From the NCBI RefSeq assembly GCF_003018255.1, contig NZ_CP027440.1: 64,000 nucleotides of DNA. One strand, 5' to 3'. Source of the stretch: Escherichia coli. GTDB lineage: Bacteria; Pseudomonadota; Gammaproteobacteria; Enterobacterales; Enterobacteriaceae. Position numbers and translations under genes: made by a program. The first letter of the stretch is position 1. Each line of letters opens with the position of its first letter. This document shows, piece by piece, positions 806-57,085 of the stretch. The notes under the pieces are model-generated. The model worked only from the letters and a program-made list of their open reading frames with translations, did not search any database and had not been told where the DNA came from.

Positions 806-2290
806 ATGGAAACCTTCCTTTCCCTTCGTCATATCAACAAAACGTTTCATGCCACGCGAGCGCTGCGCGATGTTTCTCTCGACTTTATGTCGGGTGAGGT
901 GCACTGCCTTGCCGGGCAAAACGGCTGTGGTAAATCGACGTTGATTAAAATTATGTCCGGTGTTTATCGCCCGGATGAGGGGGCGGAAATTACGCTTGGT
1001 GGGAAAAACTGGTCAAAGCTGACACCCGCCGCTTCGGTGGCGCAGGGGATTCAGGTGATTTATCAGGACCTCTCTTTATTTCCTAACCTGAGTGTCTGGG
1101 AGAATATCGCCGTGAATCACTATCACCACGGTCTGTTTGTTAACCGCCGTCGTCTGCGTGAGGTGGCGCAGGCGGCAATGACCAGTATTAACGTCACATT
1201 GCCACTGGATACGCTCGTTTCTGAGCTTTCAATTGCCCGCTGTCAGCTGGTGGCAATTTGCCGTGCACTGGCGCAGGACGCACGGTTGATCGTGATGGAT
1301 GAACCAACCGCTTCGCTGACCCATCAGGAAGTGCAAGGGTTATTACAGGTGGTGCATCAATTGCGGGAACGCGGGATCTGCGTGGTCTTCGTCAGTCATC
1401 GTCTGGAAGAAGTGATGGAAGTTTCCGACCGTATTTCAGTGCTGAAAGATGGTGAGCTGGTCGGGACCTTTCCGGCCGCAGAGATGACCACAAAACAACT
1501 CAGTTTTCTGATGACCGGCCAGGAGTTCGAATATCAGGTACGAGAGTTGTGGCAGGGAAAATCCAGCACCCCGGTGCTGGAGGTGCGTAATTTAAGTCGT
1601 CATGGGGAATATCAAAATATTAACTTGCGGGTGGAAGCGGGCGAAGTGGTGTCGATTGTTGGCCTGCTTGGTGCGGGGCGCACGGAATTATGTCTGAGTC
1701 TGTTTGGTATGACCCGACCGGATGCTGGTGAGATCCTCATCAACGGTCAGCCGGTTACACTGCATAGTAACCAGGACGCCATCCGCCACGGTATTGGTTA
1801 TGTTTCGGAAGATCGCATGTCGCGCGGTTTGGTGATGGCGCAATCTATTGAAGACAACATCATTAGCACTGTTTTTCACAAGGTAAAAGATCGCTTCGGC
1901 TTTCTGAGTGAAGCTAAAGTGCGTGACCTGGTGGACAGGCTAATCAAGGCATTGACCATCAAAGTCTCTGACCCACATCTCCCGGTGAATACGCTTTCCG
2001 GGGGTAACGCGCAGCGAGTATCGATCGCCAAATGGCTGGCGATTGGGCCACGACTGTTGATTCTCGATAGCCCGACTGTCGGTGTTGATATCGCCAACAA
2101 AGCAGGAATATACGGCATTATCAGCGATCTGGCGGCTCATGGCATTGCGGTATTGATGATCTGCGATGAAATTGAAGAAGCGTGGTATCAAAGCCACCGG
2201 ATTTTGGTAATGCAAAAAGGTCAGATCACCCATAGCTTCCTGCCTGACAGCAGTTCTCAGGCCAGGATTGCGGAGGTGGTAAATGGCTGA
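806..2290 (+). CDS. sugar ABC transporter ATP-binding protein with duplicated ABC domains (RbsA/XylG-like)
   Basis: Two Walker A motifs (GQNGCGKST and GLLGAGRTE) and an LSGGNAQR signature; track ORF begins at TTG 791, in-frame ATG at 806 preceded by GGGGA. Confidence 0.85.
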   Translation: METFLSLRHINKTFHATRALRDVSLDFMSGEVHCLAGQNGCGKSTLIKIMSGVYRPDEGAEITLGGKNWSKLTPAASVAQGIQVIYQDLSLFPNLSVWENIAVNHYHHGLFVNRRRLREVAQAAMTSINVTLPLDTLVSELSIARCQLVAICRALAQDARLIVMDEPTASLTHQEVQGLLQVVHQLRERGICVVFVSHRLEEVMEVSDRISVLKDGELVGTFPAAEMTTKQLSFLMTGQEFEYQVRELWQGKSSTPVLEVRNLSRHGEYQNINLRVEAGEVVSIVGLLGAGRTELCLSLFGMTRPDAGEILINGQPVTLHSNQDAIRHGIGYVSEDRMSRGLVMAQSIEDNIISTVFHKVKDRFGFLSEAKVRDLVDRLIKALTIKVSDPHLPVNTLSGGNAQRVSIAKWLAIGPRLLILDSPTVGVDIANKAGIYGIISDLAAHGIAVLMICDEIEEAWYQSHRILVMQKGQITHSFLPDSSSQARIAEVVNG

Positions 2291-3254
2291 ACTGAAAAAA
2301 CGCCATGAATTCTGGCTGGCATTACTGATTGTGGTGCTGTTTGTTGGCCTTGCCTGGCGCAGCGACGAGTTTCTGACATTCGGTAATTTGTACGATCTCG
2401 CCAATAACTATGCCATGTTGACTATTCTCGCCTGTGGTTTGTTTGTGGTGTTAATTTCCGGTGGGATTGATATTTCGTTTCCGGCAATGACCATCATTGC
2501 GCAATACGGCATGGTGCTGTTGCTGCAAAAAATTGGTGGCAACTTTGCTGTTGCGTTTGCCCTGGCGGGCGGCATCGGCATTTTACTTGGCTTAATTAAC
2601 GCCTTACTGGTTAATCGCCTACGGGTGCCTTCTATCATCATCACTATCTCGACGCTGAATATTTTCTATGGCCTGCTGTTATGGTTGAGTAAAGGTGTGT
2701 GGCTGTACGACTTTCCGCCGTGGTTTGAGCAGGGGGTTATGTTGTTCAAGTACACCGATGCTGATGGCTATGACTATGGCCTTGGTCTACCGCTGATCGC
2801 CATGATTACGGTGGTGCTGCTAACAGCGTTTATCATGAATTTCACCAGTGTAGGGCGCAAAATTTATGCCCTTGGCGGGAACCGTGAATCCGCCAGTCGC
2901 ATCGGCTTTAGTGTGCTGAAACTGCAACTTTTCGTCTATGGCTATATGGGATTGATGTCTGGTGCTGCGGGTGTAGTGCAGTCGTGGACGGTGATGACTG
3001 TCGCCCCCGATTCTCTTCTGGGTTATGAGCTGACAGTACTGGCTGCGGTGGTGCTTGGCGGCACTAGTTTGCTCGGCGGGCGCGGCACGTTAACCGGTAC
3101 TTTGCTCGGCGTGGTGTTGTTGGCAGTGATGCAAAACGGGCTAAATTTATTGGGAGTCTCGTCTTACTGGCAAACATTGATCACCGGCATCATCATCGTT
3201 GCCAGCATTAGCGCCACGGCGTGGAGTCAGCATCAGAACCGGAGTCTGCTATGA
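2283..3254 (+). CDS. sugar ABC transporter permease (RbsC/branched-chain family)
   Basis: Hydrophobic multi-TM protein; ATG 2283 lies 5 nt upstream of the ATPase stop, so the two genes overlap by 8 bp. Confidence 0.85.
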   Translation: MAELKKRHEFWLALLIVVLFVGLAWRSDEFLTFGNLYDLANNYAMLTILACGLFVVLISGGIDISFPAMTIIAQYGMVLLLQKIGGNFAVAFALAGGIGILLGLINALLVNRLRVPSIIITISTLNIFYGLLLWLSKGVWLYDFPPWFEQGVMLFKYTDADGYDYGLGLPLIAMITVVLLTAFIMNFTSVGRKIYALGGNRESASRIGFSVLKLQLFVYGYMGLMSGAAGVVQSWTVMTVAPDSLLGYELTVLAAVVLGGTSLLGGRGTLTGTLLGVVLLAVMQNGLNLLGVSSYWQTLITGIIIVASISATAWSQHQNRSLL

Positions 3255-4207
3255 AAAAATCGTGGCGTAACAACGTTGAGTTTTACTTGATCGGCCTGCT
3301 GGTGCTAACTGTTGCAGCCTTCAGCATTACTATGCCGGAGATTTTCTGGTCGATAAGTAATTTCCAGTCCGTCGCTTCGCAAATGCCCGTGCTGGGCATT
3401 CTGGCGTTGGCTATGGCGGTGACCATGCTTTGCGGTGGCATTAACTTGTCAATTATAGCCACTGCTAACGCCTGTTCACTGGTGATGGCGTGGGTGGCGA
3501 CTCAGTATCCACCGGGTATTGCTACGGTTGTCGCTACGCTGCTGGCGGGCGCTGGCGCGGCGGTGATAATCGGTTTATGTAACGGCGTATTGATTGCTGG
3601 TATTCGAGTGTCGCCAATTCTTGCAACACTCGGGATGATGACGTTGCTCAAAGGGGTAAATATTCTGGTGACAGGCGGTAGCGCCATTGCCAATTATCCC
3701 TCATGGGTGCTGTGGTTGAATCATGCACAGTGGTTCGGTATTCCGCTACCGATGTGGTTGTTTACCGCAGTGGCGCTGGGGCTGTGGATATTGCTGGAGA
3801 AAACGCCGCTCGGTAAATCCATTTATCTGATTGGTTCTAACGAACGAGCAACACTTTACTCCGGTATTAACACTCGTCGGGTGCTGATATGGGTGTATGT
3901 CATTTCCGCCTTGCTTTGTGCGGTAGCGGCATTTTTGATGATGTCGAAACTCAACTCGGCTAAGGCCTCTTATGGCGAATCGTACTTGCTGGTGTCAATC
4001 CTCGCGGCAGTACTCGGCGGGGTTAATCCGGACGGCGGCAGCGGGCGGATAATTGGTATGGTGCTGGCGCTGTTTCTTCTGCAAATTATTGAAAGCGGCT
4101 TCAATATTCTCGGTATAAGCCCCTACCTGACGATGGCCTTATGGGGAACGTTGCTGCTCTGTTTCATTCAGGCTCGCGGCATGTTAGGGCTGGATCGGGT
4201 GGTTTAA
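3251..4207 (+). CDS. sugar ABC transporter permease, second subunit
   Basis: ATGA start/stop overlap with the upstream permease at 3251-3254, GGAG 7 nt upstream; track ORF starts at GTG 3221. Confidence 0.8.
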   Translation: MKKSWRNNVEFYLIGLLVLTVAAFSITMPEIFWSISNFQSVASQMPVLGILALAMAVTMLCGGINLSIIATANACSLVMAWVATQYPPGIATVVATLLAGAGAAVIIGLCNGVLIAGIRVSPILATLGMMTLLKGVNILVTGGSAIANYPSWVLWLNHAQWFGIPLPMWLFTAVALGLWILLEKTPLGKSIYLIGSNERATLYSGINTRRVLIWVYVISALLCAVAAFLMMSKLNSAKASYGESYLLVSILAAVLGGVNPDGGSGRIIGMVLALFLLQIIESGFNILGISPYLTMALWGTLLLCFIQARGMLGLDRVV

Positions 4208-7320: not shown

Positions 7321-7387
7321 TTCTGAATCCTATGTAAACATCCCCGATGCGTAAGTTTATCGGTGATCATCATCTATTGAAATTTAT

Positions 7388-7420
7388 GCCGGATAAAGCG
7401 TTCGCGCTGCATTCGGCAGT
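7388..7420. repeat. REP (repetitive extragenic palindrome) element
   Basis: gccggataaagcg...cgctgcattcggca palindrome between convergent yahO and prpR. Confidence 0.6.
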
Positions 7421-10165: not shown

Positions 10166-10256
10166 ATGCCTGATGCGCCGCTGACGCGACTTATCAGGCC
10201 TACGAGGTGAACTGAACTGTAGGTCGGATAAGACGCATAGCGTCGCATCCGACAAC
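10166..10256. repeat. REP pair (BIME) in the prpB-prpC intergenic region
   Basis: gcctgatgcgccgctgacgcgacttatcaggcctac ... gtaggtcggataagacgcatagcgtcgcatccgaca palindromes. Confidence 0.8.
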
Positions 10257-12989: not shown

Positions 12990-14876
12990 ATGTCTTTTAG
13001 CGAATTTTATCAGCGTTCGATTAACGAACCGGAGAAGTTCTGGGCCGAGCAGGCCCGGCGTATTGACTGGCAGACGCCCTTTACGCAAACGCTTGATCAC
13101 AGCAATCCGCCGTTTGCCCGTTGGTTTTGTGAAGGCCGAACCAACTTGTGTCACAACGCTATCGACCGCTGGCTGGAGAAACAGCCAGAGGCGCTGGCGC
13201 TGATTGCCGTCTCTTCGGAAACAGAAGAAGAGCGCACCTTTACCTTTCGTCAGCTGCATGACGAAGTGAACGCGGTGGCCTCAATGTTGCGTTCATTGGG
13301 TGTGCAGCGTGGCGATCGGGTGCTGGTGTATATGCCGATGATTGCCGAAGCACATATTACCCTGCTGGCTTGCGCGCGCATTGGCGCTATTCACTCGGTG
13401 GTGTTTGGGGGATTTGCCTCGCACAGCGTGGCGGCGCGAATTGATGATGCTAAACCGGTGCTGATTGTCTCGGCTGATGCCGGAGCGCGCGGTGGCAAAA
13501 TCATTCCCTATAAAAAATTGCTCGACGATGCGATAAGTCAGGCGCAGCATCAGCCGCGCCACGTTTTACTGGTGGATCGCGGACTGGCGAAAATGGCGCG
13601 CGTCAGCGGGCGGGATGTCGATTTCGCGTCGTTGCGCCATCAACACATCGGCGCGCGGGTGCCGGTGGCATGGCTGGAATCCAACGAAACCTCCTGCATT
13701 CTCTACACCTCCGGCACGACCGGCAAACCTAAAGGTGTGCAGCGTGATGTCGGCGGATATGCGGTGGCGCTGGCGACCTCGATGGACACCATTTTTGGCG
13801 GCAAAGCGGGCGGCGTGTTCTTTTGTGCTTCGGATATCGGCTGGGTGGTAGGGCATTCGTATATCGTTTACGCGCCGCTGCTGGCGGGGATGGCGACTAT
13901 CGTTTACGAAGGATTGCCGACCTGGCCGGACTGCGGCGTGTGGTGGAAAATTGTCGAGAAATATCAGGTTAGCCGCATGTTCTCAGCGCCGACCGCCATT
14001 CGCGTGCTGAAAAAATTCCCTACCGCTGAAATTCGCAAACACGATCTTTCGTCGCTGGAAGTGCTCTATCTGGCTGGAGAACCGCTGGACGAGCCGACCG
14101 CCAGTTGGGTGAGCAATACGCTGGATGTGCCGGTCATCGACAACTACTGGCAGACCGAATCCGGCTGGCCGATTATGGCGATTGCTCGCGGTCTGGATGA
14201 CAGACCGACGCGTCTGGGAAGCCCCGGCGTGCCGATGTATGGCTATAACGTGCAGTTGCTCAATGAAGTCACCGGCGAACCGTGTGGCGTCAATGAGAAA
14301 GGGATGCTGGTAGTGGAGGGGCCATTGCCGCCAGGCTGTATTCAAACCATCTGGGGCGACGACGACCGCTTTGTGAAGACGTACTGGTCGCTGTTTTCCC
14401 GTCCGGTGTACGCCACTTTTGACTGGGGCATCCGCGATGCTGACGGTTATCACTTTATTCTCGGGCGCACTGACGATGTGATTAACGTTGCCGGACATCG
14501 GCTGGGTACGCGTGAGATTGAAGAGAGTATCTCCAGTCATCCGGGCGTTGCCGAAGTGGCGGTGGTTGGGGTGAAAGATGCGCTGAAAGGGCAGGTGGCG
14601 GTGGCGTTTGTCATTCCGAAAGAGAGCGACAGTCTGGAAGACCGTGAGGTGGCGCACTTGCAAGAGAAGGCAATTATGGCGCTGGTAGACAGCCAGATTG
14701 GCAACTTTGGCCGCCCGGCGCACGTCTGGTTTGTCTCGCAATTGCCAAAAACGCGATCCGGAAAAATGCTGCGCCGCACGATCCAGGCGATTTGCGAAGG
14801 ACGCGATCCTGGAGATCTGACGACCATTGATGATCCGGCGTCGTTGGATCAGATCCGCCAGGCGATGGAAGAGTAG
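12990..14876 (+). CDS. prpE: propionyl-CoA synthetase
   Basis: 628 aa acyl-CoA synthetase with AMP-binding motif YTSGTTGKPKG. Confidence 0.95.
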   Translation: MSFSEFYQRSINEPEKFWAEQARRIDWQTPFTQTLDHSNPPFARWFCEGRTNLCHNAIDRWLEKQPEALALIAVSSETEEERTFTFRQLHDEVNAVASMLRSLGVQRGDRVLVYMPMIAEAHITLLACARIGAIHSVVFGGFASHSVAARIDDAKPVLIVSADAGARGGKIIPYKKLLDDAISQAQHQPRHVLLVDRGLAKMARVSGRDVDFASLRHQHIGARVPVAWLESNETSCILYTSGTTGKPKGVQRDVGGYAVALATSMDTIFGGKAGGVFFCASDIGWVVGHSYIVYAPLLAGMATIVYEGLPTWPDCGVWWKIVEKYQVSRMFSAPTAIRVLKKFPTAEIRKHDLSSLEVLYLAGEPLDEPTASWVSNTLDVPVIDNYWQTESGWPIMAIARGLDDRPTRLGSPGVPMYGYNVQLLNEVTGEPCGVNEKGMLVVEGPLPPGCIQTIWGDDDRFVKTYWSLFSRPVYATFDWGIRDADGYHFILGRTDDVINVAGHRLGTREIEESISSHPGVAEVAVVGVKDALKGQVAVAFVIPKESDSLEDREVAHLQEKAIMALVDSQIGNFGRPAHVWFVSQLPKTRSGKMLRRTIQAICEGRDPGDLTTIDDPASLDQIRQAMEE

Positions 14877-15143
14877 GTCGGATAAGGCGCTCGCGCCGCA
14901 TCCGACACCGTGCGCAGATGCCTGATGCGACGCTGACGCGTCTTATCATGCCTACAGGCCTGAACCGTAGGTCGGATAAGGCGCTCGCGCCGCATCCGAC
15001 ACCGTGCGCAGATGCCTGATGCGACGCTGACGCGTCTTATCATGCCTACAGGCCTGAACCGTAGGTCGGATAAGGCGCTCGCGCCGCATCCGACACCATG
15101 CGCCGATGCCTGATGCGACGCTTACGCGTCTTATCATGCCTAC
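14873..15143. repeat. tandem BIME array: three ~94-bp units each carrying inverted REP palindromes
   Basis: The unit gtaggtcggataaggcgctcgcgccgcatccgaca...gatgcctgatgcgacgctgacgcgtcttatcatgcctac restarts at 14873, 14967 and 15061. Confidence 0.9.
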
Positions 15144-15293
15144 CCACTGTTTTTACACAGATAAGTTTCCCCCGCCTTTTTGTACTCATTCATATAAGAA
15201 ATATATCCCCATACGAAAACGATTGCTTTTTATCTTCAGATGAATAGAATGCGGCGGATTTTTGGGTTTCAAACAGCAAAAAGGGGGAATTTC

Positions 15294-16553
15294 GTGTCGC
15301 AAGATAACAACTTTAGCCAGGGGCCAGTCCCGCAGTCGGCGCGGAAAGGGGTATTGGCATTGACGTTCGTCATGCTGGGATTAACCTTCTTTTCCGCCAG
15401 TATGTGGACCGGCGGCACTCTCGGAACCGGTCTTAGCTATCATGATTTCTTCCTCGCAGTCCTCATCGGTAATCTTCTCCTCGGTATTTACACTTCATTT
15501 CTTGGTTACATTGGCGCAAAAACCGGCCTGACCACTCATCTTCTTGCTCGCTTCTCTTTTGGTGTTAAAGGCTCATGGCTGCCTTCACTGCTGCTGGGCG
15601 GCACCCAGGTTGGCTGGTTTGGCGTTGGCGTGGCGATGTTTGCCATTCCGGTGGGCAAGGCAACCGGGCTGGATATTAATTTGCTGATTGCCGTTTCCGG
15701 TTTACTGATGACCGTCACCGTCTTCTTTGGCATTTCGGCGCTGACGGTTCTTTCGGTGATTGCGGTTCCGGCTATCGCCTGCCTTGGCGGTTATTCCGTG
15801 TGGCTGGCCGTTAATGGCATGGGCGGCCTGGACGCATTAAAAGCGGTCGTTCCCGCACAACCGTTAGATTTCAATGTCGCGCTGGCGCTGGTTGTGGGGT
15901 CATTTATCAGTGCGGGCACGCTCACCGCTGACTTTGTCCGGTTTGGTCGTAATGCCAAACTGGCGGTGCTGGTGGCGATGGTGGCCTTTTTCCTCGGCAA
16001 CTCGTTGATGTTTATTTTCGGTGCAGCGGGCGCTGCGGCACTGGGGATGGCGGATATCTCTGATGTGATGATTGCTCAGGGCCTGCTGCTGCCTGCGATT
16101 GTGGTGCTGGGGCTGAATATCTGGACCACCAACGATAACGCGCTCTATGCGTCGGGTTTAGGTTTCGCCAACATTACTGGTATGTCGAGTAAAACCCTTT
16201 CGGTAATCAACGGTATTATCGGTACGGTCTGCGCATTATGGCTGTATAACAATTTTGTCGGCTGGCTGACCTTCCTTTCGGCAGCTATTCCTCCGGTAGG
16301 GGGCGTGATCATCGCTGACTATCTGATGAACCGTCGCCGCTATGAGCACTTTGCGACCACGCGTATGATGAGTGTCAATTGGGTGGCGATTCTGGCGGTC
16401 GCCTTGGGGATTGCCGCAGGCCACTGGTTACCGGGTATTGTTCCGGTCAACGCGGTATTAGGTGGCGCGCTGAGCTATCTGATCCTTAACCCGATTTTGA
16501 ATCGCAAAACGACGGCTGCAATGACGCATGTGGAGGCTAACAGTGTCGAATAA
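15294..16553 (+). CDS. codB: cytosine permease
   Basis: 419 aa from GTG 15294 (N-terminus [10 protein letters not shown]) preceded by AAGGGGGAA; track ORF starts 18 codons further upstream. Confidence 0.9.
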
Positions 16554-17863: not shown

Positions 17864-17946
17864 ATGCCGGATGCGGCGTGAACGCCTTATCCGGCCTACG
17901 TAGAGCACTGAACTCGTAGGCCTGATAAGCGTAGCGCATCAGGCAA
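17864..17946. repeat. REP pair (BIME) downstream of codA
   Basis: gccggatgcggcgtgaacgccttatccggcctac ... gtaggcctgataagcgtagcgcatcaggca. Confidence 0.8.
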
Positions 17947-21315: not shown

Positions 21316-21406
21316 TGCGACGCTTGTTCCTGCGCTTTGTTTACGTTGGATGCGGCCTACGTAGATCACTGAACTTGTAGGCCTGATAAGCGGAGCGCAT
21401 CAGGCA
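21312..21406. repeat. REP elements downstream of cynX, between convergent cynX and lacA
   Basis: tgatgcgacgctt..., ggatgcggcctacgtag, gtaggcctgataagcggagcgcatcaggca. Confidence 0.75.
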
Positions 21407-22029: not shown

Positions 22030-22054
22030 TGCGATCATTCCGTCCTGATATGTT

Positions 22055-22086
22055 GGTCGGATAAGGCGCTCGCGCCGCATCCGACA
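22055..22086. repeat. REP element between lacY and lacA
   Basis: ggtcggataaggcgctcgcgccgcatccgaca. Confidence 0.8.
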
Positions 22087-23399: not shown

Positions 23400-26596
<3,197 letters not shown>

Positions 26597-35089: not shown

Positions 35090-35150
<61 letters not shown>

Positions 35151-37091: not shown

Positions 37092-37292
<201 letters not shown>

Positions 37293-56984: not shown

Positions 56985-57085
56985 TGCCGGATGCGGCGCG
57001 AACGCCTTACCCTGCCTACAAAATCATGCAAAATCAGTATATTGCAATTATCTGGTAGGCCTGATAAGCAAAGCGCATCAGGCAA
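56985..57085. repeat. REP elements between yaiZ and ddlA
   Basis: gccggatgcggcgcgaacgccttaccctgcctac ... gtaggcctgataagcaaagcgcatcaggca. Confidence 0.8.

Follow-up and report, generated by a model that had tools for sequence, protein, structure and literature searches.

A three-unit BIME-2 repeat array as the probable structured 3′ end of the prp operon in Escherichia coli

In the 64-kb stretch of Escherichia coli DNA analysed here (the window), the plus strand carries prpE at positions 12990-14876. This last gene of the prpBCDE operon was recognised by its 628-aa open reading frame and is annotated as prpE (propionyl-CoA synthetase) in all matching RefSeq genomes. The next transcription unit opens with codB (cytosine permease; 15294-16553, plus strand), for which we adopted the GTG start given by the RefSeq genomes. 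Between these two co-oriented, independently regulated units, prp and codBA, lies an extragenic repeat array of 271 bp (14873-15143, plus strand). It overlaps prpE by the stop codon and one base only, and the codB start follows 150 bp downstream.

Tandem Repeats Finder (TRF) reported 14873-15143 as 2.9 copies of a 94-bp period with 98% matches and a score of 521, and a repeat search returned three in-register copies at 94-bp spacing. The repeat is genuine and far above chance. Units 1 (14873-14966) and 2 (14967-15060) are the same at 94 of 94 bases. Unit 3 (15061-15143) is missing the trailing linker, measures 83 nt and departs from unit 2 by three substitutions, at 15098, 15104 and 15123. Each unit opens with an inverted Y REP, which a 13-nt linker connects to a Z2 REP. 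In unit 1, the Y REP (14873-14906, minus strand) runs opposite to the classical GCC...CTAC consensus and reads GTAGGTCGGATAAGGCGCTCGCGCCGCATCCGAC on the plus strand; it matches the Y consensus at 91% (blastn-short; nhmmer E=9e-11), and its hairpin, with a stem from 14877, has a folding energy of -18.8 kcal/mol. The head-to-head S linker that follows (14907-14919, plus strand, 13 nt, ACCGTGCGCAGAT) is the segment that varies most among alleles, as judged from 22 unit variants. It leads into the Z2 REP (14920-14955, plus strand, GCCTGATGCGACGCTGACGCGTCTTATCATGCCTAC; 94% to the Z2 consensus, nhmmer E=1e-12), whose hairpin amounts to -14.8 kcal/mol. An 11-nt tail-to-tail linker (14956-14966, plus strand, AGGCCTGAACC) connects to the identically built unit 2 (14967-15049, plus strand: Y 14967-15000, S linker 15001-15013, Z2 15014-15049), and a second tail-to-tail linker (15050-15060, plus strand) to unit 3 (15061-15143, plus strand: Y 15061-15094, S linker 15095-15107, Z2 15108-15143).

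The REPs were typed by blastn-short and nhmmer against Y and Z2 consensus sequences, which are backed by 100% matches to canonical REPs elsewhere in the window (17866 and 37154). Over the whole array, three Y REPs (91% to consensus, nhmmer E=9e-11) and three Z2 REPs (92-94%, E~1e-12) alternate in the orientation -,+,-,+,-,+, with 13-nt head-to-head and 11-nt tail-to-tail linkers. The tetranucleotide GTAG/CTAC stands at the palindrome foot in all six REPs, and the Y REP fold shows an AA/GC internal stem mismatch. BIME-2 elements are defined as y plus z2 with a short S linker, in tandem copies of strain-variable number (PMC3333891). Y/Z2 makeup, alternating orientation, S linkers, tandem copies, GTAG/CTAC feet and an extragenic position are all found here and, judged from its sequence, the prpE-codB repeat is a BIME-2-type REP array of three tandem units. 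A first-pass annotation of this DNA had described a triple tandem BIME array of near-identical 94-bp units; both TRF and REP typing bear this out, with the refinement that the third unit is the shorter, slightly diverged one. A Y-Z2 doublet can also fold as a single long hairpin (-41.1 kcal/mol), and the fold of the entire array reaches -144.9 kcal/mol (z = -6.8); as this global minimum-energy fold pairs Y with Z2 across units, it was taken as a measure of thermodynamic potential, not as the co-transcriptional structure.

The contact between the array and prpE is closer than the wording "immediately after the prpE stop" used in the first-pass annotation. Adjacency is correct, yet this wording understates the arrangement, because the array starts at 14873 and the stop codon TAG (14874-14876) is supplied by the GTAG of the first Y REP. 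The stem of the first hairpin begins at 14877, the base directly after the stop, and the stop codon itself is base-paired if the long hairpin forms instead. The distance between the prpE stop and the first palindrome is 0-8 nt in all alleles. The overlap with the stop codon had gone unmentioned in the earlier annotation, as had the match of the units to naRNA4 and the Rho-binding overlap of the K-12 counterpart, both of which are described below.

In K-12, the element REP26 (NC_000913.3, 354600-354770; name and coordinates from the supplement of bioRxiv 10.64898/2026.03.23.713779) shares with the array the locus, the flanks, the Z2/Y units and the 11-nt and 13-nt linkers. By this correspondence the array is the orthologue of K-12 REP26 and, as such, an ordinary REP/BIME cluster that is already catalogued in E. 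coli. REP26 has two units instead of three. Its leading palindrome has the variant sequence GTCGGATGCGTCGCGCGGTGCATCCGGCA and begins 8 nt downstream of the stop, whereas the first REP of the window array is a canonical Y whose GTAG includes the prpE stop. From the BIME-2 family described by Gilson, Bachellier and Hofnung (PMC3333891) the array does not differ substantively: alternating Y/Z2 orientation, S linker, tandem copies and strain-variable number are common to both. REP325/naRNA4 (yjdM-yjdN, RF02564) has the same Y-Z2 unit layout and is likewise placed between two co-oriented genes, but it comprises six units (12 hairpins) with linkers of its own, and terminator and stabiliser activity have been measured for REP325. 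As in the REPIN/RAYT (TnpA-REP) system, there is an inverted REP doublet that shows both the GTAG foot and the mismatched stem that TnpA-REP requires; no RAYT gene was found within the 64-kb window.

The prpE-codB array is one of several REP loci in this DNA. Fourteen further REPs at eight extragenic loci were detected by blastn-short and nhmmer, so that the earlier count of nine or more additional REP or BIME elements is right if single REPs are counted but too high for loci. Five of these loci lie at 7386-7417, 17866-17944, 21377-21405, 22053-22085 and 35099-35131. A pair made of a Z2 and an inverted Y-like REP (10168-10253, plus strand) is located in the prp operon itself, between prpB and prpC. 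A second BIME-2 array, Z2-Y-Z2-Y, separates yaiL from fghA, two convergent genes (37102-37288, plus strand; TRF period 101, 2.2 copies; REP typing). Between yaiZ and ddlA, a BIME-1-like element (56986-57083, plus strand) combines a Y, a 35-nt linker and an inverted Z1 and has an IHF-like site, AATCAGTATATTG, at 57032 with one mismatch. A 15-nt REP match at 24625, within lacZ, was dismissed as chance. The statement that the other REPs mark operon boundaries applies to six of the eight loci, which are at 3′ ends of transcription units, but not to the two within operons (prpB-prpC and lacY-lacA).

Two further identities proposed for such repeats can be set aside with near certainty. Minus-strand ORFs of 61-91 aa beginning MIRRVSVASGI are present in the ORF list (14674-14949, 14849-15043 and 14952-15137), and on this basis the repeats could be thought to encode small proteins. 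However, three does not divide the period of 94, so that the reading frame changes from one unit to the next and the ORFs overlap each other; the number of ORFs would also shift with copy number. Searches of these ORFs against Pfam and NCBIfam gave no family match, and no gene is annotated between prpE and codB in the 12 RefSeq loci inspected. Protein coding by the repeats was rejected on these grounds, in agreement with the earlier view that the ORFs are artefacts. An IHF-binding RIB/RIP (BIME-1) element is just as improbable. The literature states in general that REPs bind IHF (PMC3333891), and BIME-1 resembles the array in being built from REPs and placed at 3′ ends of transcription units. 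Yet BIME-1 elements are single-copy and combine Y and Z1 with a long L linker that holds the IHF site, as the element at 56986-57083 exemplifies, and IHF binding is a property of this L linker (PMC3333891). The array is multi-copy and has neither a Z1 REP nor a long L linker, and it contains no match to the IHF consensus WATCAANNNNTTR at two or fewer mismatches, the best having three. An IHF-binding identity was rejected accordingly, and the general remark that REP arrays bind IHF does not carry over to this locus.

The unit number at this locus is polymorphic. In sampled complete E. coli genomes, about 25% have one unit, about 50% two and about 12% three; five units are rare and eight occur in O157:H7. 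Here the unit numbers 1, 2, 3, 5 and 8 were confirmed by sequence and the frequencies were sampled by flank spacing. The expectation that copy number varies between strains was thereby confirmed, with a range of 1-8 units. All 60 best-matching genomes, which we take to be phylogroup B2 strains, have two units, and JNE112863, the closest genome over the whole window, has the same three-unit form. The three-unit state is a lineage-specific allele. Because units 1 and 2 are identical, the third unit probably stems from a local duplication of unit 1, either through slippage or unequal exchange between the 94-bp repeats or through TnpA-REP-mediated BIME amplification. Beyond E. coli, the array is present in E. 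whittamii and one divergent Escherichia according to a GTDB scan with a degenerate prpE 3′ end, whose three loci show presence but are too few to date the insertion. The locus was occupied in every allele examined, and a zero-REP state was never seen among the sequences read. IS621 and IS1 insertions occur at the locus, the linkers are not the same in different Escherichia species, and some strains have prpE as a pseudogene. Variation among the 22 unit variants is concentrated in linkers and loops. With few stem substitutions among them, their G-U versus A-C asymmetry does not separate RNA- from DNA-level selection.

Most likely, the array constitutes the structured 3′ end of the prp operon. 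A scan of the plus strand from 14600 to 15400 for intrinsic terminators, defined as a GC-rich stem followed by a T run within 0-2 nt, gave none; a T5 run at 15150-15154 is 6 nt past the last REP and 10 nt past its predicted stem. Downstream of the array, a C-rich, G-poor, unstructured spacer (15144-15223, plus strand; 21 C and 8 G in 80 nt) matches rut-like composition and is a candidate Rho loading region. A sense-strand peak of in-vitro Rho binding in K-12, P_R10_256, extends over the final 59 bp of REP26 and the spacer, and it carries no flag for a bicyclomycin-sensitive transcript (bioRxiv 10.64898/2026.03.23.713779 supplement). Mapped onto the window, this peak covers 15085-15251. For REP325, a model BIME-2 array, downstream expression is reduced ~8-10 fold and upstream mRNA is stabilised; this effect is partly bicyclomycin-sensitive, and REP325 fragments with two or four hairpins show no Rho dependence (bioRxiv 10.64898/2026.03.23.713779). 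The sequence and studies of other REPs suggest the following steps. The array would be transcribed as the 3′ UTR of prpE, and its six hairpins together with the following C-rich, G-poor tract would create a leaky, partly Rho-dependent end of prp transcription, which would limit read-through into codBA. Hairpins remaining at the RNA 3′ end would block 3′-to-5′ exonucleases. As the first hairpin starts directly behind the stop codon, ribosomes completing PrpE may also be slowed by it at termination. On the DNA, the BIME-2 class is one preferred by gyrase. The stabilisation of upstream mRNA that the first-pass annotation ascribed to REP arrays is seen in some contexts but fails as a general rule; terminal REPs show no association with longer mRNA half-lives genome-wide (bioRxiv 10.64898/2026.03.23.713779). 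Expression of prpE is absent under standard laboratory conditions. Taken as a whole, the reading of a BIME-2 array with an extra unit from local duplication, acting as a hairpin-based and Rho-assisted 3′ end of prp, is one that we hold with good confidence.

The most serious competitor, which we nevertheless consider the less probable account, is that the array is essentially selfish or neutral REP doublet DNA, spread by RAYT/TnpA-REP and slippage and tolerated without a locus-specific job. In vitro, TnpA-REP cleaves and recombines BIMEs. A drift of unit number between one and eight among lineages, linkers that vary between Escherichia species and the tolerated IS621 and IS1 insertions are what this account would predict, and the confinement of variation to linkers and loops is expected if only the transposase-recognised hairpin is constrained. 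It is at odds with the occupancy of the locus in all alleles examined, including E. whittamii and the divergent Escherichia, with an array that stands in for an absent intrinsic terminator, and with the in-vitro Rho binding of the K-12 orthologue REP26. Moreover, a selfish or neutral origin is compatible with a secondary function. Very improbable, by comparison, is a role of the units as a naRNA4-like noncoding RNA that, with HU, bridges REP cruciforms and condenses the nucleoid. All three units do exceed the gathering threshold of the Rfam naRNA4 model (RF02564; 70.2, 70.2 and 71.6 bits on the plus strand against 59.5) with alignments that span the full model, 1-77, and the original model was derived from REP325 Y-Z2 units (PMC4550694). 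The Rfam model, however, in effect describes any Y-Z2 unit, as its match to the second array at 37157-37235 (81 bits) illustrates. In addition, the prp operon is normally silent, and a 2026 preprint from the same laboratory reports no effect of REP325/naRNA on nucleoid volume and no REP-REP contacts (bioRxiv 10.64898/2026.03.23.713779).

Two other proposals would shift the main role of the array to translation or to DNA topology, and we regard both as unlikely. A hairpin abutting the stop could stall the terminating ribosome and thereby cause mRNA cleavage, tmRNA tagging and a lower yield of PrpE. The stem that follows TAG directly at 14877, the pairing of the stop codon in the long-hairpin fold and the 0-8 nt spacing in all alleles are in keeping with such a role, and REPs at most 15 nt from a stop codon cause ribosome stalling (Liang et al. 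2015, summarised in PMC12306157). For this purpose, however, a single hairpin would be enough, which leaves the tandem array unexplained. Alternatively, the array could serve chiefly as a gyrase binding and cleavage site, i.e. a topological insulator that would absorb positive supercoils from prp before the codBA promoter. Its place between two co-oriented, independently regulated units would suit this function; BIME-2 elements have a higher affinity for gyrase than BIME-1 (PMC1475751) and are cleaved by gyrase in vivo according to references given in PMC3333891 and PMC1475751. This evidence, however, is at the level of the class. A structured, Rho-assisted 3′ end of prp remains our preferred reading.

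Beyond annotation hygiene the importance of the array is small, and nothing about it will surprise a specialist. For annotation, it calls for masking as a REP/BIME-2 element and for removal of the ORFs that overlap it; for typing, the locus offers a convenient, stable and lineage-informative length polymorphism. A bolder idea, to which we give little credence, is that the unit number of 1-8 is a heritable dial, more hairpins bringing tighter insulation of codBA and altered prpE mRNA stability while the stop-embedded hairpin sets the yield of PrpE. Selection on such dosage is probably weak, because natural alleles span 1-8 units and because prpE has become a pseudogene in some strains. If the dial were real, O157:H7-type alleles with eight units would show measurable differences in the catabolism of propionate or the uptake of cytosine. 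For the model of REP arrays as Rho-assisted attenuators and mRNA stabilisers, the array represents a natural allelic series.

The array at 14873-15143, between prpE (12990-14876, + strand) and codB (15294-16553, + strand), is REP26, the already catalogued prpE-codB REP element of K-12. It belongs to the BIME-2 class and is nothing new in kind; the window carries a three-unit allele, which is found in other sequenced strains too. The window covers E. coli chromosomal DNA from a gene for an lsrB-like ABC transporter, directly 5' of yahK, to aroL; an alignment with strain JNE112863 spans its whole length at 99.39% identity. Tandem Repeats Finder reported a period of 94 bp, 2.9 copies, 98% matches and a score of 521, and a separate repeat search of the window placed three copies in register. 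Units 1 (14873-14966) and 2 (14967-15060) are identical at 94 of 94 positions; unit 3 (15061-15143) is without the trailing linker and has substitutions at 15098, 15104 and 15123. Both searches and the direct comparison thus bear out the triple array of near-identical 94-bp units proposed in the first-pass annotation. That annotation had placed it immediately after the prpE stop. The array does lie at the end of prpE (ORF end 14876), but because the TAG sits within the first REP, in its GTAG foot (junction GAG-TAG-GTCGGATAAGG), the stop codon is itself part of that REP.

A full unit consists of an inverted Y REP (34 nt, GTAGGTCGGATAAGGCGCTCGCGCCGCATCCGAC), a 13-nt head-to-head linker, a Z2 REP (36 nt, GCCTGATGCGACGCTGACGCGTCTTATCATGCCTAC) and an 11-nt tail-to-tail linker. 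All six REPs of the array have the GTAG/CTAC foot and an internal stem mismatch. This architecture fits the published definition of BIME-2, i.e. y and z2 REPs, a short S linker and tandem copies of strain-variable number, BIME-1 being defined by y and z1 REPs in one copy with a long L linker that bears an IHF site (PMC3333891). The earlier BIME assignment therefore stands and can be refined to an orthologue of REP26: in K-12 this element is a tandem pair at 354600-354770, from prpE to codB (supplement, bioRxiv 10.64898/2026.03.23.713779), and alignment confirmed that the two are the same. As an addition to the first-pass annotation, each unit matches the full Rfam model RF02564 (naRNA4) with 70-72 bits (gathering score 59.5), as does a second BIME-2 array at 37102-37288. 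Since this family was derived from Y-Z2 units of REP325, the yjdM-yjdN model array (PMC4550694), the match only repeats the Y-Z2 architecture and is no sign of a separate function.

ORFs on the minus strand that begin with MIRRVSVASGI, previously called artefacts, were likewise rejected as genes. Each begins at an ATG within a Z2 REP and crosses the neighbouring unit in a shifted frame because 94 is not divisible by 3; none matched a family in Pfam or NCBIfam, and none of 12 RefSeq loci inspected has an annotated CDS between prpE and codB. The suggested IHF binding does not apply to the prpE array, which has no match to WATCAANNNNTTR at up to two mismatches. In contrast, the BIME-1-like element at 56986-57083, between convergent yaiZ and ddlA (Y, 35-nt linker, inverted Z1), carries in its linker an IHF-like site, AATCAGTATATTG, at 57032 with one mismatch.

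The expected strain variation in copy number was confirmed across E. coli genomes. Reading the spacer directly, we found one unit in XH992 and 2018-05-5CC, two in K-12 MG1655, ATCC 11775, E3 and S40, three in ATCC 8739, JNE112863 and the window, five in PKF11 and eight in O157:H7 F7349. In 60 records evenly spaced down the ranking of 5,232 that matched a flanks-only query, array length was inferred from flank spacing: two units in 30, one in 15, three in seven, eight in three and five in one, with flanks apart and no count assigned in four. Within lineages the unit number is stable; all three O157:H7-type rows of this sample have eight units, and the 60 best-matching genomes, including UTI89, S88, APEC O1 and ATCC 11775, which belong to phylogroup B2, all have two. 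Overall, the genome closest to the window is JNE112863, whose array shares the three-unit form and differs at two bases. Given this shared form and that units 1 and 2 are identical, the third unit is a recent duplication in place.

Outside B2, most alleles have a variant first palindrome, GTCGGATGCGTCGCG.GGTGCATCCGGCA, which starts 8 nt past the stop; in the window, as in the B2 strains, a canonical Y sits at the prpE stop. The same site is occupied by three units in E. whittamii, and in a representative of a divergent Escherichia the array starts with Z2 and comprises five Z2 and four Y REPs with longer tail-to-tail linkers. The array is kept in E3 and STEC1575, where prpE is annotated as a pseudogene (frameshift and internal stop, respectively). 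S40, STEC1575 and PKF11, one strain group, share a 7-bp duplication (CCCACTA-CCCACTG) directly 3' of the last Z2 REP, which accounts for the 991/992-bp spans in the flank-spacing sample. In STEC1575, IS621 (IS110 family; about 2065-3360 of that locus, CDS 2245-3225) lies inside the last Z2 REP, between ...TTATCAGGCCT and ACCCACT. REPs are known targets of IS621; the 7-bp duplication is not its target duplication, since it is found with and without the element. MS20673 has an IS1 within the spacer. DXKH01000124.1, a MAG contig labelled Citrobacter sp., is E. coli-like by eye in this region and has a one-unit array as in XH992; it seems that either the bin is mislabelled or the contig misbinned.

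Beyond the prpE array, the window holds 14 REPs at eight extragenic loci: yahO/prpR (7386-7417), prpB-prpC (10168-10253), codA/cynR (17866-17944), cynX/lacA (21377-21405), lacA-lacY (22053-22085), mhpE-mhpT (35099-35131), yaiL/fghA (37102-37288) and yaiZ/ddlA (56986-57083). That such REPs mark operon boundaries is true of most loci only, because those at prpB-prpC and lacA-lacY are inside operons. A 15-nt REP match at 24625, within lacZ, was discarded as chance. The yaiL/fghA array is Z2-Y-Z2-Y with a period of 101 and gives the top naRNA4 match of the window (81 bits). The Y REPs at 22053-22085 and 10219-10253 share with the prpE array an unusual GTCGG...CCGAC foot, in which a compensatory U-A pair replaces the consensus C-G pair; this common foot suggests a local Y subfamily spread over about 12 kb. 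On the gene map, REPs lie 3 nt from the stop of prpR (7386-7417), 15 nt from cynR (17916-17944), 13 nt from lacA (21377-21405) and 10 nt from lacY (22053-22085), i.e. in the 15-nt range for which PMC12306157 reports a translational effect.

No intrinsic-terminator-like site was found on the + strand of 14600-15400. The Y and Z2 hairpins have predicted energies of -18.8 and -14.8 kcal/mol, and a unit can alternatively fold into a single long hairpin (-41.1 kcal/mol) with the stop codon base-paired; the whole array folds at -144.9 kcal/mol versus -110 for shuffles (z = -6.8). The 80 nt 3' of the array are C-rich and G-poor (21 C, 8 G). In K-12, a sense-strand peak of an in-vitro Rho-binding screen, P_R10_256 (354711-354878), covers the last 59 bp of REP26 plus spacer, equivalent to 15085-15251 of the window, with no link to a bicyclomycin-sensitive transcript (bioRxiv 10.64898/2026.03.23.713779 and supplement). 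Peaks of the same screen at 346558-346773, 357791-357902 and 361627-361796 adjoin the K-12 elements REP24, REP28 and REP30, which correspond to yahO/prpR, codA/cynR and lacY-lacA; several REP loci of the window thus coincide with Rho sites. Directly 5' of the array, the prpE 3' end (14755-14855) has seven GATC (Dam) sites in 101 bp, the densest cluster of the 64-kb window. K-12 has the same cluster, and in dam mutants the RNAP ChIP signal about 200 bp downstream goes up; prpE is silent under standard conditions (bioRxiv 10.1101/2025.01.06.631547).

REP325 lowers expression downstream by a factor of about 8-10 and makes the message upstream of it more stable, with partial bicyclomycin sensitivity for the full array only (bioRxiv 10.64898/2026.03.23.713779). 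Gyrase binds BIME-2 better than BIME-1 (PMC1475751), and ribosomes stall at REPs that lie within 15 nt of a stop codon (Liang et al. 2015, as cited in PMC12306157). For the prpE array, prp transcripts would end within or just 3' of the repeats through leaky, partly Rho-assisted termination, the leftover hairpins would shield the prpE 3' end, and the hairpin adjoining the stop may damp PrpE synthesis. Since one to eight units are tolerated, any dosage effect of unit number would be weakly selected.
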